18,590 nucleotides of DNA from Bacteroidota bacterium (GCA_020630215.1 JAHDBT010000040.1:1-18590); one strand, 5' to 3'. Counted from the stretch's first letter, positions 4,366-18,386 are shown. Numbers and translations are program-made. The notes: generated by a model not told the origin, from the sequence alone.

Positions 4366-4830
4366 ATGAATGAGAATTTACATTTATCAAACCAGCCCCA
4401 TCAACTTGTAACGATACGTGCCGTCAACCAAGGACTTGTATTTGGCGTAGCAGCAGCACATTTTATGTTGCTTTACTTTTTTATTCTCTTGCTTTTTAAC
4501 ATCAACACTCTACCTTGGCATATTGTGGGCAAAATAGTTGTATTGTTAGGCGTTATGTACTACGCTTATGCTAGTTACAAAGAAAACCGCAAAGAAATGA
4601 GCCTAAAAAGTGGTATTAAATTGGGCTTGTCTACGGCATTCGCCGCCGCTGCAACTTTAGTTTTTTTCGAGTTAATTGTACACCTTGTTTTTGGTTTTAA
4701 TTTAGCTCCCGAAACTACTTTTGCACAGGGTTTACCTACCTATGCTATGTTTGGTTTACTAGCACTAGAGTTAATGGCTTATGGCGGCTTAATTGCTATT
4801 TTGTTTACATTATATTATCGAGGAAAATAA
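4366..4830 (+). CDS. Small integral membrane protein with 4 predicted TM helices. A DUF4199-like Bacteroidota family is possible but unverified.
   Basis: The 154-aa ORF has four hydrophobic stretches of 19-22 residues: LVFGVAAAHFMLLYFFILLLF, IVGKIVVLLGVMYYAYASY, LGLSTAFAAAATLVFFELIVHLVF, FGLLALELMAYGGLIAILFTLYY. The N-terminus is hydrophilic. A long upstream intergenic region precedes it. Confidence 0.7.
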   Translation: MNENLHLSNQPHQLVTIRAVNQGLVFGVAAAHFMLLYFFILLLFNINTLPWHIVGKIVVLLGVMYYAYASYKENRKEMSLKSGIKLGLSTAFAAAATLVFFELIVHLVFGFNLAPETTFAQGLPTYAMFGLLALELMAYGGLIAILFTLYYRGK

Positions 4831-7599: not shown

Positions 7600-9339
7600 A
7601 TGTATTCCTTCAGCAATCAACTCGTACAAGCCCAAGCTCCTCCTCGAACACCTCATTTTCATATACTCCCACACTATAATATTCAACCCTATAATCCCAG
7701 TATTTCCTACAATGCCCAACTGGTAGTGCCTACAGGATACGATGCCGCATTTATTTATCGGCAACAACTAAGAGATGTATTTGAACCAGGTCAACATCAT
7801 TTAAATGAAGCTACGCTTCCTCAACTTGCGAAGAGCCAAGAATGGCATATTGAACGACCTAAAACTTTTCAATCCGATCTTATTTTTATTAATACTAAGC
7901 CCATTACTTTCCAATGGGCTGTTACAGCTCCAGTGCTCTGTTATTATCCATCTGCATCTACTAAACCTCACCAAAGCCATTCCGAAGAAGCGACCTTTAT
8001 TTATGTAGGCGGCCAATACCAGTTTCAAATTGAAAACATTGCCACTTTTATAAAACAAACCGAGCTTAATTTTCGCCTGCATACATCTGACGAAATAGCA
8101 CAAACAATTGGTGATACGGTGCATCATGCTGCTCAAAACACTACCCAAACTTATGCCTTTGCCGCCGAAAATTTACTAGCAGATAATAGCCATTTCAAAC
8201 AACAAGTTACCCAGCAACTCCTTTCCTTATTTACCGAATATGGAATGCGCTTAAACCATTTTTCCGTTGATGATATTCGTTGGCGCAGTAAATATATAGA
8301 TGTTAATTTTCCTTATATTGATACTGCTAACCAAACCCTTAATTGTTGGAAATGCAAAGCTAAACTGCCCCGTATCCAAAATAGAAAATACTTTAGCTTT
8401 AAAGAGTGTAATCATTGCGAACAGTATTACCGCCTTAACGAACGCCAACTTTACCTAGATAAACAGGGAACTTGGCAGCCTGTTGCAAAAGATAATTACG
8501 ATACAGGTACACAGGTTAATTCCCTCCATCATTTTCACCTTAACAATTGTAAGGAATGCAATTTGGCAACCCTCATTCCTCCAGCAAAAACCCAGAGCAC
8601 TTGTAGCTATTGTGACAAACCTCAACTAATAGCAACAGTAAATAGCATTGATGAAAAAATTAGTCCTACGCATATTGTGCCCTTTAAAATAGATAAAGAC
8701 CGTGCGGCACTCACTTTTTTATATTGGTTAGACGAACAAAAAAATCTGCCTAATAAAGTCATTCATTACGCCAAAGAAAACTATACGATTAAAGGCATTT
8801 TTGTTCCTTGCATTATGGCTAATATACGTAGCTACACTTATTTTAAAGGCAAAAAAGGAATTCCTCAATTTCCCGAAAAGAAAAACAGCATCGTGGCTTG
8901 GTATAATCGGGAGGGCATAACTCATCTATCTTTTAATAAACAAAAAACTTTTGCGAGTCAGCTTATACCCAAGCATCAACTAGATTTATTAGCCGATTTT
9001 TTAAATATAGATTTAGTCGCTTTTAATAGTACTCACCTACAACATAAAGCTGTAGAAACCTACGAAACAACACTGCGAATACCACTTAAAGATATGCTTC
9101 AAAATATTGACGTTTTAATAACAACCGCTATACAGAAAAAAATAGGCAGCAAACACCAAGAAATAACCGAAACTTTCACGACTTTTAATAATTCAACCAT
9201 TAAATTTGTATTGGCTCCTGTTTGGATAATCGAATTTGAATACCATACCAAAAGTTTTCAATACCTAATAGGCGGTAACCACGGAAAATTAATTACCACC
9301 AAACAACCCAGCTTAATGGGCTTGTTATTGGGTAAGTGA
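7600..9339 (+). CDS. Uncharacterized 579-aa protein (paralog A). N-terminal SPFH/band-7-like domain, two zinc ribbons (C249/C252/C270/C273 and C317/C320/C335/C338), conserved C-terminal domain of unknown function. No TM segment.
   Basis: Residues about 38-228 follow the prohibitin/stomatin fold pattern. VVPTGYDAAFIYRQQLRDVFEPGQHHL matches the SPFH start VPxGxxxVVxRFGKxxRxLxPGLHF. The domain ends LFTEYGMRLNHFSVDDIRW, matching GIxVxxVxIxDI. Zinc-ribbon motifs are CWKC...CNHC and CKEC...CSYC. Long blocks are identical to paralog B (NYTIKGIFVP, SPTHI, AVETYE, PVWII). Confidence 0.85.
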   Translation: MYSFSNQLVQAQAPPRTPHFHILPHYNIQPYNPSISYNAQLVVPTGYDAAFIYRQQLRDVFEPGQHHLNEATLPQLAKSQEWHIERPKTFQSDLIFINTKPITFQWAVTAPVLCYYPSASTKPHQSHSEEATFIYVGGQYQFQIENIATFIKQTELNFRLHTSDEIAQTIGDTVHHAAQNTTQTYAFAAENLLADNSHFKQQVTQQLLSLFTEYGMRLNHFSVDDIRWRSKYIDVNFPYIDTANQTLNCWKCKAKLPRIQNRKYFSFKECNHCEQYYRLNERQLYLDKQGTWQPVAKDNYDTGTQVNSLHHFHLNNCKECNLATLIPPAKTQSTCSYCDKPQLIATVNSIDEKISPTHIVPFKIDKDRAALTFLYWLDEQKNLPNKVIHYAKENYTIKGIFVPCIMANIRSYTYFKGKKGIPQFPEKKNSIVAWYNREGITHLSFNKQKTFASQLIPKHQLDLLADFLNIDLVAFNSTHLQHKAVETYETTLRIPLKDMLQNIDVLITTAIQKKIGSKHQEITETFTTFNNSTIKFVLAPVWIIEFEYHTKSFQYLIGGNHGKLITTKQPSLMGLLLGK

Positions 9340-9605: not shown

Positions 9606-11357
9606 ATGGGCTTATTCGATAATGAAATCATAAAACCAGATCTAGAAAATAAATCCAACAATTTATTTTACCTACCTGATTATAAAAACTGGCTTCTCCC
9701 CAACAGCATTAAATACGATGCTAAATTGCAAGTGCCACAAAGTACCGAAGCCATTTTTATTACCAAACAACAACCCGCCGATGTTTTTACGGCTGGCGAA
9801 TACCTCCTCAATTTCGATACGCTTCCTAAGCTATCGGATATTCAGCGATGGTATAATAATGCGCCTAGCTCGTTTAAAGCCAAATTATACTTTGTTGATA
9901 AAAGCACTTTTGAAGTGCAATGGCAAGTTAATTATCCGATGTTGGTATACAAACGAAACAGCAATGCTTCAACGGATAGGATTGTTCGCCTGAATGATCG
10001 GCTAACACACCTACAACTTGCAGGGGTCTACGATTTTCATATTGCAGATACGACTACTTTTGTTCAAAAAATGGGTATGCACCTCGAATCGCTTAAACCG
10101 AGGCTGGTAATGAAAAAATTGGAAAAACTAGGCAATCAAATTATCTTTAACTTTTTAGAACAATACGAATTTACTTCCGAAACGTTGCTAGGAGATAACT
10201 CGCAATTTAATGCCAACATACAAGCAGAAATGAAACGAGTGTTCGCATTGTATGGCATTGAATTAGAACGTTTTGCATTACAAAGCAGTCGTTGTGGAAC
10301 AGGACAGGAAAACCTTGACCTTCCGTTGGTACATCCACAAAATGAGGGTATTTATTGCTGGTCTTGCCAACATGCACTGCTCGACCCTAAAGGCATGAAA
10401 CGCTTTAGTGTAACCGATTGCGATTACTGCGACCAAACCTATCGCTTTGTAGATACTAAAGGTTTTTTTGATAAAAGAGCCGTTTACCAAGCCACACCTA
10501 AAAATGCCAGTTCCGCAGGGCCAGGAGTGAGCAAACTCCAACATTTTAACGCAATGACCTGTCCTAATTGCCGCCGCTTTTCTATCATCCCCCCCGAAAA
10601 AAAGGAAGATCATTGTACGCAATGCAACAATCCGCAATTAATAGATACTTTGTATTCGCTAGGGGCAAAAGCAAGCCCTACGCATATTGCTCCTTTTCAA
10701 AAAAGCAGACGTGATGCCGAGCTTATTTTTTCAGAGTGGCTGAGTAGCGTTACTTTGTTATCGAAAAAAACCCGTAATTACATTAAGGACAATTATACTA
10801 TTAAAGGGATATTTGTGCCTGTCTTAATATACGATTTACAAAGCTACACCTACTTTCATGGTCAACGAGGCATTAGGTATCGACGTGGCGATAACACCTA
10901 TACCGATTGGACTCCTGTAAAAGGACAAGACCATTTGGCCTTTAATAAACAAACTGCTTTTACCAGCAATCAAGTTGCTCCAAAACACCTAAAAGCCCTC
11001 AACGATTTTTTTACTACCGACCTCCTCACTTTTAGCAGCAAGCACATTCAACAGCACGCCGTAGAAACCTACGAAGCTCCTATTGATGCCACGATGAATA
11101 ATGTACTAGGACAATTTACGCCTTATATTGCACGCTCTATTAAAAGAAAAATTGGCGGCGACCGACAACAAATTGATAAATCGTTTACCTCCCTCAACAA
11201 CTCCAAAATTCGTTTTGCCTTAGTACCCGTTTGGATTATTAATTGCGATTATAGCGGCACGCAATACGAGTATGTAATTGGTGGAAGAAAAGGTAAACTC
11301 GTGGCAATTAAACATGAAGTGGAAGTGTTGCGTAAAATTTGGGATTGGTTTAGTTAG
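9606..11357 (+). CDS. Uncharacterized 583-aa protein (paralog B). Same SPFH-like, double zinc ribbon and C-terminal domain architecture as 7600-9339.
   Basis: Colinear with paralog A along its whole length. LQVPQSTEAIFITKQQPADVFTAGEYL aligns with LVVPTGYDAAFIYRQQLRDVFEPGQHHL. Zinc-ribbon cysteines are at 251/254/272/275 and 319/322/337/340, offset by +2 from A. Identical blocks: NYTIKGIFVP, SPTHIAPF, HAVETYE, LVPVWII, IGG.KGKL. Confidence 0.85.
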   Translation: MGLFDNEIIKPDLENKSNNLFYLPDYKNWLLPNSIKYDAKLQVPQSTEAIFITKQQPADVFTAGEYLLNFDTLPKLSDIQRWYNNAPSSFKAKLYFVDKSTFEVQWQVNYPMLVYKRNSNASTDRIVRLNDRLTHLQLAGVYDFHIADTTTFVQKMGMHLESLKPRLVMKKLEKLGNQIIFNFLEQYEFTSETLLGDNSQFNANIQAEMKRVFALYGIELERFALQSSRCGTGQENLDLPLVHPQNEGIYCWSCQHALLDPKGMKRFSVTDCDYCDQTYRFVDTKGFFDKRAVYQATPKNASSAGPGVSKLQHFNAMTCPNCRRFSIIPPEKKEDHCTQCNNPQLIDTLYSLGAKASPTHIAPFQKSRRDAELIFSEWLSSVTLLSKKTRNYIKDNYTIKGIFVPVLIYDLQSYTYFHGQRGIRYRRGDNTYTDWTPVKGQDHLAFNKQTAFTSNQVAPKHLKALNDFFTTDLLTFSSKHIQQHAVETYEAPIDATMNNVLGQFTPYIARSIKRKIGGDRQQIDKSFTSLNNSKIRFALVPVWIINCDYSGTQYEYVIGGRKGKLVAIKHEVEVLRKIWDWFS

Positions 11358-11610
11358 TTTTTTTCTAGTAGCGGGTACATGGTAATTGGTATTTAGACGG
11401 CTACGCTTCGTTGTTTTAATTTATGTTGATATTGTAGTCCCTACCATAGGCTTCTGCACTATTTTGTTTTTCGGTTACTATTTGTAGTCGAAGTGTTAGG
11501 TGAGCTCTTAGCTTTACTCTCAAATCACGATGGTAAGTAATAACATTTTTTGTAGTATTGCCTAGTGATTAAACGAACTAAAGTTGGTTCTACATTATCT
11601 CCCAAAAGGC

Positions 11611-11648
11611 AAAAAAAAGCCCCTTTCAAATTTGTTATTGAAAGGGGC
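11611..11648 (-). terminator. Repeat-borne intrinsic terminator copy 1 (minus strand)
   Basis: Perfect 11-bp stem gcccctttcaa (11619-11629) / ttgaaaggggc (11638-11648). 8-nt A-run 11611-11618 on plus, equal to 8 U on minus. Confidence 0.5.
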
Positions 11649-11772
11649 AAAGTTCCCAAATTACCCAAATGTTCCCGGAGCAAACGGTTGTTTTTTTGTA
11701 ACCGCCAACTATACATTTTGGAGGGTGTTTTTTGGTAAAAATCTACTATTTTTAAAGCTTTATTTTGGGAGG

Positions 11773-11809
11773 AAAAAGCCCCTTTTAAGTTTGCACTAAT
11801 AAAAGGGGC
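11773..11809 (-). terminator. Repeat-borne intrinsic terminator copy 2 (minus strand)
   Basis: Perfect 10-bp stem gcccctttta (11778-11787) / taaaaggggc (11800-11809). A-run 11773-11777. The ninth stem pair is T:A, where copy 3 has C:G. Confidence 0.5.
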
Positions 11810-11930
11810 AGAGTTCCCAAATTACCCAAATGTTCCCGGAGCAAACGGTTGTTTTTTGTAACCGCCAACTATACATTTAAGGTAGTCTTTTGGTAAAAAT
11901 CTACTATTTTCAAAGCTTAACTTTGGGGAG

Positions 11931-11967
11931 AAAAAGCCCCTTTCAAGTTCGCACTAATGAAAGGGGC
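11931..11967 (-). terminator. Repeat-borne intrinsic terminator copy 3 (minus strand)
   Basis: Perfect 10-bp stem gcccctttca (11936-11945) / tgaaaggggc (11958-11967). A-run 11931-11935 on plus, equal to a U-run after the hairpin on minus. Confidence 0.5.
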
Positions 11968-12087
11968 AGGGTTCCCAAATTACCCAAATGTTCCCGGAGC
12001 AAACGGTTGTTTTTTGTAACCGCCAACTATACATTTAAAGGTAGTCTTTTGGTAAAAATTTTGTATTTCAAATTTTAATTTGGGAGG

Positions 12088-12124
12088 AAAAAGCCCCTTT
12101 CAAGTTTGCACTAATAAAAGGGGC
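12088..12124 (-). terminator. Rho-independent terminator of the giant T9SS cargo gene, 48 bp past its stop
   Basis: On the minus strand: gccccuuuua (RC of 12115-12124), 12-nt loop, ugaaaggggc (RC of 12093-12102), then uuuuu (RC of 12088-12092). The stem has one G-U wobble on the minus strand. On the plus strand the same position would be a C-A mismatch. Confidence 0.65.
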
Positions 12125-12171
12125 AAAGTTCCCAAATTACCCAAATGTTCCCGATGCTAACGACTGGTCAA

Positions 12172-15100
12172 TTACTTGTCAACCGCCAACATTACATTAG
12201 AGATGATTTTGTGCTTTGCGTTTAATTGGTAAAAATAAATTCCTGCAGAAAGTTCCCCACGCTTGAACACAACTCTATTTTTACCTTCCACTCCTACTTT
12301 GCTGGTACTGAACACTTTACGACCATCTACAGCAAATACATTAAGGGTGTATTCCGAGGCTTCTTCTAGGGCAAAAAATATCACAGTTTCGTCATTAAAT
12401 GGGTTTGGATAGTTGCTAATCGTCCCTGCATTCAATATATTTTCGGTTGGAGCGTTGGCGTTTTTAAAGCGTACATCGCTAATATTTAATTCAAATGGCA
12501 TACTGCCTGTTTCGCTACTTGCACCGCTAATGGTAAACACAACCGATTGTACATCACTTCGATCAAACATATTTCCTGTTTCGCTTACTAAATCGCCCAA
12601 CCAAATTTCGTGTATGGTTGATGAGGTACTTAATGGCACTTGAATTTTAAATTGTTCATCCCAGTTGTTAATTCCTGCTTTTGCAACGGTTACCGTCATA
12701 ATTTGAGGTCCTTCTACTTCAGCAGTAAATGCTAGCACATTGTAATTGCTTACATCGGCACTTGCGCTACGAGGACGCAGGTTACGCACTACTGATAAAT
12801 AAGAGCCTACCGTACCTGTTAACTCCACATTTCGCTCTACAATCATATCGTCGCTATTGTGGTCGTCGAGGTTGGTGATGTATGGGCTTACTTCATAGCT
12901 GTCAATTTGTGTGCTGCTAGGCGTTTCTGTAAACCAGGTTCCGTCGGCACTGTAAATAACATCTACTTGCGAGTTCACATTGTTTTTTACATTAAAGCCA
13001 ATATCGTATACACTGCCTAAATCTAAAACAACTTCTTCTTGTGCTGCGCCACTTAAAGCAATTACTTCTTCAAATTGTTGGCGTTCTTCTGTTTCGGTTG
13101 TTTTGTAAGTACCTCTTAAAGTTACTTCTGTAGCATTGTTGTTGTTCTGGATATTGAGGTTTAACTTCCCTTTGTTGTAATTCCCTTTGCGTACATACAC
13201 CTCTGGAATAGTTGGTGCATCGTTATTGGCATATACAAGTCCAGTCGTTTCCTCTTTCATCAAGTCCAACACACGTATCATTAAGTCTTCGGCTAAATCT
13301 AAAGTAGAAGACCATACTTGGAAATTAAAGTTAACAGGCAATTCGTCGTAATCTTCTAAGTCCCAACGGTTGTCGATATATAATCCACCATAGCCGCCTG
13401 AGTGTGCGGTAAAGCTGATGCCATATTCTACGGTTCCATCTGGTTGTTCTAGTACGTAGTAAATAAATGGTTGGTATTGGATGTTGATGTGTCCAATGTC
13501 GGTTAAAGTAGCACCGCTAAAACGGTCGCAAATAACTTTAGTGTGTTCGTACACTTGGTCGTAGGTAGACAAAGCTAAGATGGCTCCGTAGCGTTCTTCG
13601 CCCGAGAAATAATCTACTGCAAAAACTTCTTCGGCATTGGTAATATCAATTAAGTCTGCTGGTGTAGAAATGTAGGCCTGCGAATCGTACATGCCTTTTT
13701 CTGGAATAAATTTAATCAAATCAGAAATACCCGATTTTTGGTTGGCTTTAGCTGCCTCCGATTGTATGGTTTGTATGTCTCCTTTGCGTGCTGCTTTTTC
13801 GGTAAACTTTATCAGTTGTTCTTTTTCAATATTTTTAGTATTACTTGTTCTTCTTTGTTGGTATTTTCTTTTAGCAATTTTAGATGCTAAATCACCATTA
13901 CTTTCTAAGCCAGCCGTTTTACCCGAACCCGAACCAAAACATTGCGAGAAGTAAAACTCATCTTCCTTAGAAGTAACCAATACCCCACAAGTTTCGCCAC
14001 TCGATACACAGGTTGCTTGTATCTCAGTTAAGGTTTGCGCTTTAAATAAAGATACATCACATCCTACTAAAACGGTATCAACCTCAAAATCAATGTCCCA
14101 TATCATTGTATCCTGCGTTGGAATGCCATCTGCAAAAAACCAATCTAAGCGAGTAATGCCATCTAACACTTCAATAGTTGGTTCTGTGGTGCTAGGAATG
14201 TATTGTGTAAAGTTACTGCTGCCTTCTATGTAGGCATATCCTTTAGGTAAGGTTAAGTAGTAGTGATCTCTGCTCGAAGTTGGGTCGCCTGTTTCTGGTG
14301 TTTTATTTAACATCATGATGGTAAACTGGCTACGACTGCTAGTATCTTGCGCCATAAGCGGTGCATAAATTTGCTCGTAATCTAAAGCAGCATTTAAGCG
14401 GATAGGCAATGTTGCATCTGCAGCCGAGTACAAAGGTTCTCCACAAGTACCATCGGCATTAGAAATAAATTGTAGCGAACCACCTGAAATAAATCCACAA
14501 GCAGTTGCTAATTTTACACTTACTAAGTACTCGTTGGCAGGACGTTCGGCATAAGGACGTAAACCATTTGCTTCCAAGCCCGCTACAATACCCGAAATGT
14601 CCCAACGGAAAAGACGCTCACTAATTGGCGTAGGTTCTACGTCGTAAACCGTACCCATGTATTCTACTTTTGAGTAGCCTTCAATAATATCTAAGTTAGA
14701 GCCTAATGGTAATAATAAGTCGAAGCTTAAATTTCTAGCAACACCTGGGTCTCTATTAGAAACCGATACCGTATAATCAAACTCCTCACATAAATCGGTG
14801 TAAGTATACGATTTGTTTACAATGGCTGTTTGTACCTCTGGCACAACAGGGTCTAGCATTAATGTTGTTCTAAACACTTGGCAAGGGTTAGCAGCTACCG
14901 AACTAGGATAGGCATCACATCCACCCCAACCTGCAACAATATCAAATTCACGTTGTTGACAAATATTATAGGTGTAGTAAAAACGTAAATCTACATAATC
15001 GTCTGCTTGTCCTAAAAAGCCATACTCCCAAAAATCGTTGTTAAGTGTTAACCAAACGTTATCTGTAATATTGTAAACCGAATCAACGATAATATAGCCA

Positions 15101-18100
15101 CCTGGCGAATCATAGCTTACAAACACATGGTCCGCGTCAGAAAAAGGAGCTTCGTTTCTCAACCTAATATCTACTGTTTCTACCGATTCTACGGCAGCTA
15201 GAATGCTGGTTTGTCCGCCTAAGATCTGGAAGTTAATATCAGGAGGAACTACATCGTAATTAGCGGTTGTAGTACGTTGTATGCCGCTAGGATCGAGAAA
15301 GGTTGTTTCGTAGTCTAAAGTAACATTTCCTATTCCAGCAGTTGCATCACAATTGGCAGAAACTTTAGGTGAAAACTGCAAGCGAATGCCTTCATCTGGT
15401 AAAGGAATACTGCCTCCGTTAATGGTATAAATACTGCTTAAATCGTAGGTTTGTGTATTTCCCGAAGTTGATATAGGCGTGAGCGTTGCGCTTTCTACAA
15501 CGCTGCTAAATCCTCCTACATTACGACGTTGGTAAACGGTTAAGCTTTCCATGGTGTAACCTACAGGAACGGTATAGGTCATTTCGTCTAAGGCTATCAT
15601 TTGTCGATACTCGTAAGGAAACTGGCGGCTGCTGTTGCCGATATTGTTTCCAATATAAAAGTAGTTAAAGTATCTTTCTAAATATTCTGTTCCTAGGTTT
15701 TGCGATTCACAGCCATCTAGGGTATGGTCTAAAGTTCCTAAGTTGGTTACATTGTAACCATAGGCAACCATACGAACAGCATAATTATTACAAACATAAG
15801 GTGTTCCGTTTTCGCTGGTGGTTAAATAATAGTTGGTATCAAATACGGCTACTTTCATTCCCGAAAAAGAACCGTTAACTTTATAGTTGGCTACTACCGA
15901 AATAGAATCGCCATTGGCGTAACTAAAGTCCATAGGAATATCGGTACAAGGTAAAGCAGCTAATTCGTCTACACTAAAATCGTATCGCCACGTACGGGTT
16001 TCGCCCGATGTACTTACGGTAAAAGGCACTTCACTACAAGTATAGGTATTGCCTGTGCTGGCATCGTAAATATTAATAGCTGCATCAAGTCTATCAATAT
16101 AGCTACCAAATAATGGCATATTTACCTCTGCATATCCATAATCGAATGCTTGAGGACTATTCTCATTTGTTACTACTGTTCCTCTAAATTCGCTTGTAAA
16201 TTCGTCTTGTAAAAACAAACGGTCAGTACGCACTTTACTCATATCTAAACTGCCACTTCCATCTGCTTGTCCATTATCGTCGTTGTCTGCTTGTCCAAAA
16301 GTAGTACGAGCAGTAGAGAAAGATAAAAAGCGCATTCCTCCTAAATCACAGCCAGCTCCACATTGAATTCTGATAGGCGTGCTTAATTGGCAATGCAAAG
16401 TGTGCAAATTGCTACTTGTGCAATTATCGCTAGATTCAAAAAAGGTTTGTGCTGTAACATTTTGCCATCCAGAAGAAACACCTCCTAAAGCATTACAACA
16501 AGCAACCACATCAAACAAAATACGATTGTTTACATAGCTTTGTGGGGGAAACTGTAGACTGATAAGTCCGTTGTCATCGTCAATTTCTACAGAAGTTGGT
16601 AGTGTTTTAGTATTGACACCATGAATCATCGCAAAATCGTTGGTACCTGGTAAACACAAACCTAGCGGTATATCAATTTCTACGGCTACATGCCCCGTAC
16701 CATCATCGGTAAAACCTTGCAAGTAGGCATTGGTATAATTAATTTCAAAAGTACCTTCATCACCATCGTCCATATCTAGGGGAGCATCAGGTAAAGAAGC
16801 TGTCCAATGAAAAGCTTCTGCATTAAATTCTAGCATGGGCATCGTAGCAGTTTCAAAATTACACGTACCGCCAAATGTACCTTCGCTTTCCCATACCTCG
16901 AACCATTGTTTGTTATTACATGCAGGATTGGGATTGATTAATACACAACGTTCAAAATCGAAATCTACGTAGAAGGTTTCGCCTGGCTGCATAAAATCGA
17001 TCGTAAAAGCAAATTCGGTGTTGATAATTCCACCACCTGAATAGCAATGAGGGCCACTATAAGCCCCAGTTGCACTATCTAACATGAGTGCTTGGACAGC
17101 TTCGCCTTCTTTTTGTATCGTAAAAGAAGACTCCACAATATAATTGTTATTATAATCTTCCATGTCGTTTAATAGATTGTATTGAATATTGGTAGCTGTT
17201 CCCGTGCCATTGTTGGTGAGGGTAATTCGCCCCTTAGCCATTTCGCTCCAACAGGCGGGTAAGTCTGCTACGCCTAGTGTTGCTACTACCGCAGGAATGC
17301 CTACTGGTGTTTGAATATTGGGAAACAAATCTTCCTGTTCGCAAGTGGCATTGTCGCATCCCCAACGTACAAAAGAGGTAGAGCCTACATTTGGATTGGT
17401 ACAGGCATTTACCATAATTACTTCCTCAATAATTGCTTCATCATTAGGGTAATTATCTAAGTTGCGAAGGAGTTTATTAACTTCATAACTAATCGTATTT
17501 CCATCAATAGCTGGTGTTACTTCGATGCCATCTACTAGTAAACTTACAAAGCTTACGCCTTCTTCCATGGTGCTTTCAAAGGTAAATTTTTCGAGTGCTG
17601 ATAGGATGCCCGTATTGGTAACGCTGTAGCTACGAGAAAAAGATTGCCCTATTAAGCCATTATTTTGCACCATGTTTGTAACGCCTGCAAACTGCACTGA
17701 TGGCTTTTTTACTACGCCAATTAAGTTTTCGCCTACGCCAACATCGCTGTTAGGCACGCCATTAATTTGGTAGTTAGCGGTTAATTGCGAATACAACTCG
17801 CTTTCGCCATTGGCACCACATTTTGCTCGCGCTAAAATTTGCACGGTGCTGCTGCCTTGATAGGCTAAATCGCTAAGGTTAAATACGAGTGCAGAAATAT
17901 CGCTATCATCCACACTAATAATGTTTGCGCTAGGAATATAGCTTACATACTCAATGGTATTAGGCAGGCTATATACTAGGCTAAGGTTAGTTGCCGTAAC
18001 TGGTGTTTCTGGATTTTCTATGGTAATACTTAGTGTATCGGCACTAGCACATTCACTTAAAAAAGTGCTTAGGAAATCGGTTGTTTCGGTAATGGAAAGG

Positions 18101-18201
18101 TTTTGTGCTTGTACATTGTTGGTTGTTGTGGTAGAAGAGCCTATTAAGGTGCATAAAACTAATATGCTTATGCGGAAGGATTGAAGTAACATCTCTTTCA
18201 T
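12172..18201 (-). CDS. Giant (2009 aa) T9SS-secreted cell-surface protein with N-terminal signal peptide and C-terminal Por-secretion sorting domain
   Basis: ATG at 18201 gives MKEMLLQSFRISILVLCTLIGSSTTTTNNVQAQ, a signal peptide. An upstream in-frame TTG at 18237 is an alternative start. The C-terminus NYPNPFNDETVIFFALEEASEYTLNVFAVDGRKVFSTSKV...LSAGIYFYQLNAKHKIISNVMLAVDK is a canonical T9SS CTD. The body is rich in Thr/Ser/Asn/Gly/Tyr with many paired Cys, which suits an adhesin or surface-layer protein. It has a single uninterrupted frame of 6 kb. Confidence 0.9.
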   Translation of the reverse strand: MKEMLLQSFRISILVLCTLIGSSTTTTNNVQAQNLSITETTDFLSTFLSECASADTLSITIENPETPVTATNLSLVYSLPNTIEYVSYIPSANIISVDDSDISALVFNLSDLAYQGSSTVQILARAKCGANGESELYSQLTANYQINGVPNSDVGVGENLIGVVKKPSVQFAGVTNMVQNNGLIGQSFSRSYSVTNTGILSALEKFTFESTMEEGVSFVSLLVDGIEVTPAIDGNTISYEVNKLLRNLDNYPNDEAIIEEVIMVNACTNPNVGSTSFVRWGCDNATCEQEDLFPNIQTPVGIPAVVATLGVADLPACWSEMAKGRITLTNNGTGTATNIQYNLLNDMEDYNNNYIVESSFTIQKEGEAVQALMLDSATGAYSGPHCYSGGGIINTEFAFTIDFMQPGETFYVDFDFERCVLINPNPACNNKQWFEVWESEGTFGGTCNFETATMPMLEFNAEAFHWTASLPDAPLDMDDGDEGTFEINYTNAYLQGFTDDGTGHVAVEIDIPLGLCLPGTNDFAMIHGVNTKTLPTSVEIDDDNGLISLQFPPQSYVNNRILFDVVACCNALGGVSSGWQNVTAQTFFESSDNCTSSNLHTLHCQLSTPIRIQCGAGCDLGGMRFLSFSTARTTFGQADNDDNGQADGSGSLDMSKVRTDRLFLQDEFTSEFRGTVVTNENSPQAFDYGYAEVNMPLFGSYIDRLDAAINIYDASTGNTYTCSEVPFTVSTSGETRTWRYDFSVDELAALPCTDIPMDFSYANGDSISVVANYKVNGSFSGMKVAVFDTNYYLTTSENGTPYVCNNYAVRMVAYGYNVTNLGTLDHTLDGCESQNLGTEYLERYFNYFYIGNNIGNSSRQFPYEYRQMIALDEMTYTVPVGYTMESLTVYQRRNVGGFSSVVESATLTPISTSGNTQTYDLSSIYTINGGSIPLPDEGIRLQFSPKVSANCDATAGIGNVTLDYETTFLDPSGIQRTTTANYDVVPPDINFQILGGQTSILAAVESVETVDIRLRNEAPFSDADHVFVSYDSPGGYIIVDSVYNITDNVWLTLNNDFWEYGFLGQADDYVDLRFYYTYNICQQREFDIVAGWGGCDAYPSSVAANPCQVFRTTLMLDPVVPEVQTAIVNKSYTYTDLCEEFDYTVSVSNRDPGVARNLSFDLLLPLGSNLDIIEGYSKVEYMGTVYDVEPTPISERLFRWDISGIVAGLEANGLRPYAERPANEYLVSVKLATACGFISGGSLQFISNADGTCGEPLYSAADATLPIRLNAALDYEQIYAPLMAQDTSSRSQFTIMMLNKTPETGDPTSSRDHYYLTLPKGYAYIEGSSNFTQYIPSTTEPTIEVLDGITRLDWFFADGIPTQDTMIWDIDFEVDTVLVGCDVSLFKAQTLTEIQATCVSSGETCGVLVTSKEDEFYFSQCFGSGSGKTAGLESNGDLASKIAKRKYQQRRTSNTKNIEKEQLIKFTEKAARKGDIQTIQSEAAKANQKSGISDLIKFIPEKGMYDSQAYISTPADLIDITNAEEVFAVDYFSGEERYGAILALSTYDQVYEHTKVICDRFSGATLTDIGHINIQYQPFIYYVLEQPDGTVEYGISFTAHSGGYGGLYIDNRWDLEDYDELPVNFNFQVWSSTLDLAEDLMIRVLDLMKEETTGLVYANNDAPTIPEVYVRKGNYNKGKLNLNIQNNNNATEVTLRGTYKTTETEERQQFEEVIALSGAAQEEVVLDLGSVYDIGFNVKNNVNSQVDVIYSADGTWFTETPSSTQIDSYEVSPYITNLDDHNSDDMIVERNVELTGTVGSYLSVVRNLRPRSASADVSNYNVLAFTAEVEGPQIMTVTVAKAGINNWDEQFKIQVPLSTSSTIHEIWLGDLVSETGNMFDRSDVQSVVFTISGASSETGSMPFELNISDVRFKNANAPTENILNAGTISNYPNPFNDETVIFFALEEASEYTLNVFAVDGRKVFSTSKVGVEGKNRVVFKRGELSAGIYFYQLNAKHKIISNVMLAVDK

Positions 18202-18386
18202 GATCAATTGTCTTTTTTTTATAAGTTCGCTTATCAATAGATGGTTATACGTACTATTGTAAGTAAAGTTAATGCCAAGCCGCTAAGTTCTTGGTTGTCA
18301 ATTGATTAAAAACTTCTTGTATGTAGGGGAGTTATTTGTTTTGGGAGGGGAGTTTCAAAATGGGAATGAATAGCAATATTTTTTAC

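Follow-up and report, generated by a model that had tools for sequence, protein, structure and literature searches.

Genomic context and organisation of the array

The stretch of 18,590 nucleotides at JAHDBT010000040.1:1-18590 of a Bacteroidota bacterium (GCA_020630215.1), referred to throughout in its full length as the window, carries between two convergent genes a tandem array of units of approximately 158 bp, and it is this array, together with the giant type IX secretion system (T9SS) cargo gene of the minus strand that it adjoins, that forms the subject of the present analysis. The product of the cargo gene shows 100% identity with a deposited protein of 2009 aa (P0003), and it matched the T9SS C-terminal domain (CTD) family Por_Secre_tail at aa 1943-2010; the gene that faces it from the plus strand codes for an SPFH/Band_7_1 protein. 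Judged by its Mfd protein, the nearest relative of which is 73% identical, the host is a Chitinophagales-like member of the Bacteroidota. The open reading frames (ORFs), units, hairpins and conserved segments, including those of the 3' untranslated region (3'UTR) and of the coding sequence (CDS), are collected in Table 1.

A prior reading of the window made from the sequence alone (the sequence-only reading) had described four tandem units of ~158 bp lying 3' of the minus-strand 2009-aa gene, and two types of search bore this out. Tandem Repeats Finder (TRF) returned a single long-period array in the 18.6-kb window (11614-12153; period 158, 3.4 copies, 89% matches, score 848), and a repeat search recovered four in-register copies of three sub-blocks at spacings of 157-163 nt. 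The array occupies 11611-12236, directly 3' of the cargo gene. All of its units are direct and arranged head-to-tail, each starting on the minus strand with AATGTA. The count of four holds for the in-register copies, but the distal unit is truncated at its T-run and lacks a spacer, the array being composed of three full units and one truncated unit or, with regard to the state of their coding ends, of one authentic copy (U1), two full decayed copies (U2 and U3) and one truncated decayed copy (U4). An nhmmer profile of the unit gave four matches in the window with E-values of 1e-35 to 1e-38 and no further full-length match, the only plus-strand signals being marginal self-matches on the palindromic hairpins (E = 0.018-0.44). 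No similarity was found by local alignment between the flank distal to U4 and the spacers, and the anatomy is thus that of a tandem duplication or minisatellite, with one unit repeated head-to-tail between unique flanks.

Table 1. Coordinates of the array, its parts and the genes on either side, counted from the first letter of the window.
Feature	Position	Strand	Description
Giant T9SS cargo gene	12172-18237	-	ORF of 2021 aa from TTG; deposited protein 2009 aa; TAA at 12172-12174
ATTTTTACCAA in CDS	12226-12236	-	encodes YFYQ of the CTD; the duplicated segment probably reaches upstream as far as this
U1, authentic copy	12198-12036	-	last 8 codons NVMLAVDK*, 3'UTR, terminator, spacer 1
U2, decayed copy	12035-11878	-	NV*LAVTK; nhmmer E=1.3e-38
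U3, decayed copy	11877-11718	-	NV*LAVTK
U4, decayed and truncated copy	11717-~11611	-	NV*LAVTK; stops at T8 run, without spacer
HP1 of U1	12154-12192	-	13-bp hairpin across the stop codon, UAA in GUAA loop; from RNA fold, pair table
HP1 of U2	11998-12028	-	3+7 bp, A-rich loop
HP1 of U3	11840-11870	-
HP1 of U4	11679-11710	-
Invariant block CGGGAACATTTGGGTAATTTGGGAAC, U1	12128-12153	-	0/26 differences in every pair of units
Invariant block, other units	11971-11996, 11813-11838, 11652-11677	-	as for U1
Terminator 1	12088-12124 (hairpin 12093-12124)	-	10+3 bp, GCAA loop, pair 9 U-G, T5, -17.1 kcal/mol
Terminator 2	11931-11967 (hairpin 11936-11967)	-	pair 9 C-G, GCGA loop, T5, -19.3 kcal/mol
Terminator 3	11773-11809 (hairpin 11778-11809)	-	pair 9 U-A, T5, -17.0 kcal/mol
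Terminator 4	11611-11648 (hairpin 11619-11648)	-	11 bp, 8-nt loop, pair 9 C-G, T8, -19.5 kcal/mol
Convergent SPFH/Band_7_1 gene	9606-11357	+	3' end faces the array, 253 bp past the last terminator

Derivation of the units from the gene end

The coding end of U1 reads AAT GTA ATG TTG GCG GTT GAC AAG TAA, and that of U2-U4 reads AAT GTA TAG TTG GCG GTT ACA AAA; the decayed NV*LAVTK of three copies, as set by the sequence-only reading against the authentic NVMLAVDK*, was therefore directly visible. Alignment with the nearest homologue of the giant protein (P0004, 48% identity overall, GCA_020631245.1) placed the last beta-strand of the cargo protein, ISNVML, opposite ITKIVV, the end of that homologue, and because of this correspondence the gene end is considered the ancestral copy, in agreement with the proposal that the array reiterates the 3' end and terminator of the adjacent gene. 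The P0004 locus has one plain terminator and no array, and the next homologue (33%) is likewise without a repeat.

Each unit had also been said to contain ~100 bp of downstream sequence. Such sequence is present, but it probably holds further decayed CDS, as indicated by the 11-mer ATTTTTACCAA, which occurs in all three spacers colinear with CDS 12236-12226 and, in the spacer between U2 and U3, in frame with the pseudo-end that follows (DFYQKTTLNV*LAVTK). Colinearity and partial retention of frame together suggest that the duplicated segment began ~20 codons before the stop, in which case each unit probably takes in the codons for YFYQ as well and consists of ~20 decayed terminal codons plus the 3'UTR. 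The scores of the local alignments between spacers and CDS were reached by 33-56 of 3000 shuffles (p ~0.01-0.02), and the copies are shorter than their CDS counterpart by 14-15 nt, for which a later loss is the probable cause.

Terminator-like hairpins

The four hairpins of the array retain 10-11 uninterrupted pairs, and a T5-T8 run follows them on the minus strand only, the plus-strand sequence after each hairpin being AAAG, AGAG or AGGG plus TTCCC, with no U-run. Predicted energies showed the same asymmetry, with values of -17.0 to -19.5 kcal/mol for minus-strand RNA compared to -11.6 to -17.6 kcal/mol for plus-strand RNA, and the view that the hairpins are terminator-like on the minus strand alone was thereby upheld. 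They are the strongest terminator-like sites within the entire window, and its only strong ones, and the arrangement is that expected of an intrinsic terminator, namely a G+C-rich stem-loop directly before a U-run, a short way 3' of a co-oriented gene's stop codon: hairpin 1 begins 47 nt past the TAA of the T9SS gene, and hairpins 2-4 follow the pseudo-ends. On these features of strand and position, the array probably acts as a terminator chain for the minus-strand gene.

The stems differ between units only in ways compatible with pairing, and the loops and 3-nt linker vary freely. Variation within the ten-pair stem is confined to pair 9, which is U-G in U1, C-G in U2, U-A in U3 and C-G in U4, the other nine pairs being invariant. 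The states given earlier for three of the copies (U:A, C:G and G-U wobble for copies 2, 3 and 4) proved correct, as did the other statements of that reading on the sequence; the C-G of U4, which is copy 1 in that numbering, had been left undescribed.

Parts of a unit

Read along the minus strand, a unit comprises seven successive parts. Part A is 18 nt with the last codons, AATGTA(AT/TA)GTTGGCGGTT, and in part B, 21-27 nt long, lie the loop of a hairpin (HP1) and its 3' arm, the hairpin being completed by a piece of A. Part C is the 26-nt block CGGGAACATTTGGGTAATTTGGGAAC, D the variable 3-nt linker, E the terminator hairpin GCCCCUUU...AAAGGGGC (in U1-U3 a stem of 10 bp and a further, inner one of 3 bp capped by a GCAA or GCGA loop; in U4 a stem of 11 bp and a loop of 8 nt), F a run of U5-U8, and G a spacer of ~51 nt. 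The block, noticed by the sequence-only reading as common to all units, is 100% identical across the four over its 26 nt, and for a 22-mer taken from it the window has 4 occurrences, where 0 would be expected.

HP1, which spans the stop codon in U1, was overlooked by that reading, as was the uneven divergence considered below. It exists in two sequence versions, U1 and U2-U4 differing at 10/21 aligned positions plus a 6-nt indel; the changes to its pairs comprise one swap (U-A to A-U) and two conversions of G-U/U-G to G-C/U-A. A fold common to all units was predicted, in which an AAAUGU/ACAUUU helix, the ACAUUU arm of which lies within the 26-nt block, encloses HP1, the remainder of the block is unpaired, and the terminator follows. 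Folding of the whole array as RNA repeated these unit features (z = -4.4), and single units yielded z-values of -2.6 to -3.6 on the minus strand compared to -1.9 to -2.65 on the plus strand.

A further observation concerns the first ~12 nt of the spacers (12036-12087, 11878-11930 and 11718-11772), which contain the complement of the 3' half of the block: after the first three U-runs these complements, 6-9 nt long, are UCCCAAAUU, CCCCAAAG and UCCCAAAAU. A larger imperfect inverted repeat thus surrounds each of terminators 1-3, with an outer stem for which the centroid fold gives 9, 4 and 6 bp, and a larger stem around each of them could form in read-through RNA or in DNA. Past terminator 4 the same 9-mer is found in the opposite orientation, as CTCCCAAAA on the plus strand at 11599-11607.

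Covariation and uneven divergence

The differences between the stems had been taken as compensatory and as implying selection on RNA structure. When 22 pairs (HP1 plus the terminator stem) were scored on the four-unit alignment against 500 shuffles, 93% of cells were found to pair compared to 90% in the shuffles, a value equalled by 10/500; only two pairs had changed on both sides (the U-A/A-U of HP1 and terminator pair 9), and this was equalled by 62/500 shuffles, so that with four copies the covariation is not significant. The U-G of the authentic copy is, moreover, one step from both C-G and U-A, and at the DNA level the palindrome is imperfect in U1 and perfect in the copies. Since quasipalindrome-associated template-switch mutation perfects imperfect inverted repeats in the absence of selection (PMC7202029; PMC8794818), it would yield the same pattern, and for these two reasons the inference of selection from compensatory changes is not established.

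Constraint is better, although less forcefully than by the covariation proof that had been claimed, suggested by the very uneven divergence of the parts of a unit. Among U2, U3 and U4, parts A-C (AATGTA to GGGAAC) show 0/65 substitutions and a single change in the length of an A-run, compared to differences of 9-12/51-53 (17-23%) in the spacers; Fisher tests of module against spacer divergence gave p = 8e-4 (U2 vs U3) and 2e-3 (U3 vs U4). The hairpins of the same units differ at 1-5/30-32 positions and the linkers at 1-2/3, and no stem-breaking change has occurred in ten terminator pairs x four copies. Block C is free of differences (0/26) in all unit pairs, the authentic copy included (Fisher p = 0.008 for U1 vs U2), beside a part B in which 10/21 positions (~48%) and a 6-nt indel distinguish U1 from U2-4.

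Relationships among the units are mosaic, the hairpins of U1 and U3 being mutually nearest, with a common 3' part in spacers 1 and 2 and a common 5' part in spacers 2 and 3; as read from the alignment, these relationships appear to show some recombination among units. Module and stems would either be kept as they are by purifying selection or have been homogenised by gene conversion over short tracts whose boundaries coincide.

Distribution and searches for relatives

The collections searched comprised one genome from each of 185,579 species (GTDB) and the Joint Genome Institute (JGI) metagenomes; the source genome itself is not among these, and was read within the 18.6-kb window with its ~7 intergenic regions. 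The sequence-only reading had proposed a search for copies elsewhere and for an Rfam family, and had named a dispersed genome repeat family as one possible identity. Neither received support: searches with the block's exact 22-mer returned 0 matches in the species genomes and 0 in the JGI metagenomes, no further unit or half-unit was detected elsewhere in the window, and Rfam returned 0 matches over the entire window at gathering thresholds, the best sub-threshold scores being <=24 bits against thresholds >=54. Ten fetched loci were searched with the nhmmer profile and yielded no homologous unit, no synteny was apparent at the fetched loci of the nearest Mfd relatives (68-73% identity), and a synteny search by way of the neighbouring SPFH gene located no related loci.

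A degenerate pattern of the block, GGGAACNTTTGGGNNNTTTGGGAAC, had no matches among viral sequences and three among the metagenomes, all of which were rejected as unrelated GGGAACCTTT microsatellites. The contigs concerned carry long microsatellite-like arrays of GGGAACC(T)TT(G) (L003 3535-3678, L004 212-345 and L005 10569-11069), and the GGGAAC microsatellites of L003-L005 were all that the unit profile matched in the fetched loci.

Several other classes of element were considered and set aside. Variable and template repeats of a diversity-generating retroelement were rejected in view of the lack of a reverse transcriptase domain in the six large ORFs of the window, the nature of the changes (T->A, G->A and C->T plus indels, not adenine-specific) and the repetition of CDS over ~27-70 nt only. 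Integron attC sites, CRISPR and att-site remnants were rejected on anatomy, no integrase being present in the large ORFs and the period being too short for cassettes. Conserved small ORFs were likewise discounted, the units agreeing neither in frame nor in length and U4 having one additional A by which its frame is shifted; no tRNA or tmRNA was found in the units.

Interpretation

The explanation that we favour, in which we place about as much belief as doubt, is that the 3' end of the T9SS gene has been amplified in tandem, privately to this lineage, together with its 3'UTR and terminator, the product being a four-fold terminator with a constrained 3'UTR module. A segment of ~170 bp, beginning at the codons for YFYQ in the C-terminal sorting domain and reaching ~30 nt beyond the terminator, would have been duplicated head-to-tail, most likely by slippage or unequal exchange. 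A stop codon, a 14-15-nt deletion and the rewriting of 21-27 nt around the old stop would then have cost the first extra copy its reading frame, and renewed duplication of this decayed copy would have left one intact gene end followed by two full pseudo-ends and one truncated pseudo-end. Minus-strand transcription of the giant gene would consequently meet four hairpin-plus-U-run terminators ~158 nt apart, polymerase reading through one being caught by the next, and antisense transcription would be kept out of the convergent SPFH gene; a fail-safe multi-terminator is, as a candidate, the most plausible of the roles put forward by the sequence-only reading. Before each terminator would lie a constrained module of ~67 nt, made up of the AAAUGU/ACAUUU helix around HP1 and a single-stranded GGG-rich block, for which the most likely role is one in 3'UTR RNA, that of a stability, protein-binding or small RNA (sRNA)-like domain.

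A number of points weigh against the preferred amplification and its proposed functions. The contig belongs to a metagenome-assembled genome, and the order and copy number of near-identical units rest on the assembly. The ~29 nt after each T-run show no similarity to the CDS or the distal flank in local alignments; two end pairs of HP1 are broken in U2-U4; and to the non-significant covariation must be added the lack of any relative found to carry the element, by which conservation over evolutionary time might be judged. A consensus scan found no in-register Bacteroidota promoter (TTTG / TAnnTTTG, TTTG at -33) upstream of the module, nor any sigma-70 site placed consistently in register. Finally, if terminator 1 is efficient, the downstream copies would be barely transcribed and purifying selection on them at the RNA level would be weak, and the invariant module would therefore be better explained by gene conversion or a DNA-level role.

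Several of these points are equally at home in a possible, though on the whole unlikely, alternative, according to which the array is a neutral minisatellite, its module homogenised by short-tract gene conversion or unequal exchange, its stem changes the result of quasipalindrome correction, and its function none beyond that of the original terminator. Covariation no higher than chance, the mosaic relationships with their indication of recombination among units, the lack of a homologue in any other genome searched and of a promoter for the downstream units are all as this alternative would have it; so too is the imperfect T/G of the authentic hairpin beside copies that carry both of the 'corrected' forms, T-A and C-G, as predicted by template switching (PMC7202029; PMC8794818). 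Conversion would, however, need identical tract boundaries (AAATGT ... GGGAAC) in three decayed copies, and would have to account for a 26-nt block that is identical in U1 as well, despite the ~48% difference in the 21-27 nt directly upstream, and for stems unbroken in every copy next to spacers that have diverged by 17-23%.

The unpaired state of the block, which with 0/26 differences is the most conserved part of the unit, the maintenance of HP1 in two sequence versions and the order of 5' hairpin, unpaired conserved stretch and intrinsic terminator are together typical of the architecture of sRNAs, and the array might for this reason be read as tandem sRNA genes or an amplified 3'UTR-derived sRNA of ~100 nt per unit, released by processing of mRNA or read-through transcripts or made from weak internal promoters. 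A precedent exists in NsiR1, with 12 tandem copies each under its own promoter (PMC4030482). We nevertheless regard this as improbable: there is no match to an Rfam family, no homologous unit in the relatives searched, no target complementarity found within the window and no in-register Bacteroidota promoter, while a sigma-70-like TTACCA-N18-TATAGT recognised by the consensus scan, and not listed for U4, would start transcription inside HP1. A bolder version, to be entertained with a comparable degree of scepticism, would see in the 67-nt module (helix, HP1 and GGGAAC-AUUUGGGUA-AUUUGGGAAC) a regulatory RNA domain not described before, which arose in a Chitinophagales lineage within a T9SS cargo gene's 3'UTR and was amplified four-fold, the array serving as a multi-copy sRNA or protein sponge with its dosage set by terminator read-through.

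It is highly improbable that the array represents the local clustering of a repeat spread over the genome (of the repetitive extragenic palindromic/bacterial interspersed mosaic element (REP/BIME), STAR or MITE (miniature inverted-repeat transposable element) type) that came to abut the gene and supplied its last codons. In its arrangement of a conserved motif, a variable spacer and a hairpin, the array does resemble STAR and BIME clusters in 3'UTRs (10.1101/2023.05.16.541063), and of the source genome the window alone was read. Against this stand the lack of another copy or half-copy in 18.6 kb with ~7 intergenic regions, the absence of the block 22-mer from all species genomes and metagenomes searched, and the presence within the unit of decayed codons of the CTD of the adjacent gene, the end of which is ancestral. 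Nor do the units have the hallmarks of a MITE or REP element: no terminal inverted repeats or target-site duplications bound them, their inverted repeats being internal hairpins only, and no transposase family, REP-associated Y1 included, was matched among the six large ORFs.

A DNA-level element, whether a phased set of four sites for protein binding (GTTCCC-N13-GTTCCC and a CCCAAAT doublet, at intervals of 158 bp, or ~15 helical turns) or a substrate for recombination by which the CTD end would be exchanged or cut short, with phase variation of secretion as the result, is just as remote, for although the block is invariant as sequence, beyond structure alone, and an exchange between the ATTTTTACCAA of the gene and a spacer copy would be expected to fuse the gene to an NV* pseudo-end and drop the last CTD beta-strand, the motif occurs nowhere else in the window (in promoters, for example), no recombinase or regulator is adjacent, and the ATTTTTACCAA exchange would be a one-way deletion.

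Should the four-fold terminator favoured above be correct, the locus would offer a clear natural case of the insulation of convergent genes built by duplication of a gene's own end, with dead codons as the record of the event. If the module is a functional RNA, the locus would document the birth of an sRNA family from a 3'UTR in a phylum with poorly known RNA biology, and, if the sponge or sRNA reading is true, the passage of a 3'UTR element to an sRNA gene family via tandem duplication of a gene end. The significance of either is limited by its being a single private locus in one metagenome-assembled genome, with no relatives.

Other features of the window

A second hairpin-bearing repeat lies at 205-460 on the plus strand, in the gap that separates mfd from a gene of the minus strand with its start near 118. 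It has five stem-loops (CTTGCTAGTTGCACTAGCAAG, TTTCCAATACAATTGGAAA, TTTCCAGTGCAACTGGAAA, which occurs twice, and TTTCTAGTACAACTGGAAA), three of which form a 46-nt tandem repeat (TRF 339-453, 2.6 copies, 85%); the stems exhibit seemingly compensatory differences (CCAAT/ATTGG vs CCAGT/ACTGG), and folding relative to shuffles gave z-values of -5.2 and -5.8 for the two strands. Hairpin-containing tandem duplication may thus be a habit of this genome. The mfd ORF has 1224 aa in its deposited form, with a TTG at 209 as the start, and its homologues (1116-1170 aa) all align from M98, an ATG near 500; judged by these alignments, the ORF is probably over-extended at 209-499, and with a start near 500 the hairpin repeats would therefore lie in a 5' intergenic region and not in the protein.

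The convergent SPFH gene is itself one of two tandem paralogous SPFH/Band_7_1 genes on the plus strand (7600-9339 and 9606-11357; 579 and 583 aa, 35% identical), in which the SPFH domain is confined to the first ~230 aa and for which no other homologue was found at E<=0.001 among 5.8 billion proteins. A 154-aa ORF at 4366-4830 on the plus strand is without a Pfam family at E<=0.01.

Comparison with known systems

Tandem intrinsic terminators are known at the ends of strongly expressed operons, rrnB T1-T2 being an example. The present array resembles these in presenting a series of hairpin-plus-U-run structures on one strand, 3' of one gene, from which lower read-through would be expected; it differs in that the terminators are paralogous copies of a gene end, one repeat unit apart and accompanied by dead codons, and in that their function is a predicted one. 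REP/BIME elements of enterobacteria are palindromic units, dispersed in their hundreds and alternating in orientation, that may stabilise mRNA or attenuate transcription. They share with the array the clustering of palindromic units between convergent genes at 3' ends, whereas the units described here are direct, confined to a single locus and contain gene-derived sequence. Such small bacterial repeats have been reviewed (PMC3184786).

STAR arrays are head-to-tail repeats that have lengthened the vigR 3'UTR of S. aureus, and are dispersed in ~100 copies per genome with significant covariation (10.1101/2023.05.16.541063). The lengthening of a 3'UTR by repeats, and the combination of a conserved motif with a poorly conserved part that keeps an RNA stem-loop, are common to both; the present array, unlike STAR, is a single locus that arose from the adjacent CDS, with non-significant covariation and no other copies found. 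A looser likeness is to NsiR1 of heterocystous cyanobacteria, a tandem array with a mapped promoter for each copy and conservation across the clade (PMC4030482): in both cases direct repeats each end in a terminator and correspond to a short structured RNA, which here is predicted, but neither a promoter of its own for each unit nor clade-wide conservation was found for the present array.

Quasipalindrome template switching (PMC7202029; PMC8794818) would explain U-G, C-G and U-A at one stem position without RNA selection, but is a mutational mechanism rather than a functional class, and leaves the invariant unpaired block unexplained. Taken as a whole, the array is most suitably classed as a new case, private to this genome, of an event of known type, the tandem duplication of a gene end together with its terminator.

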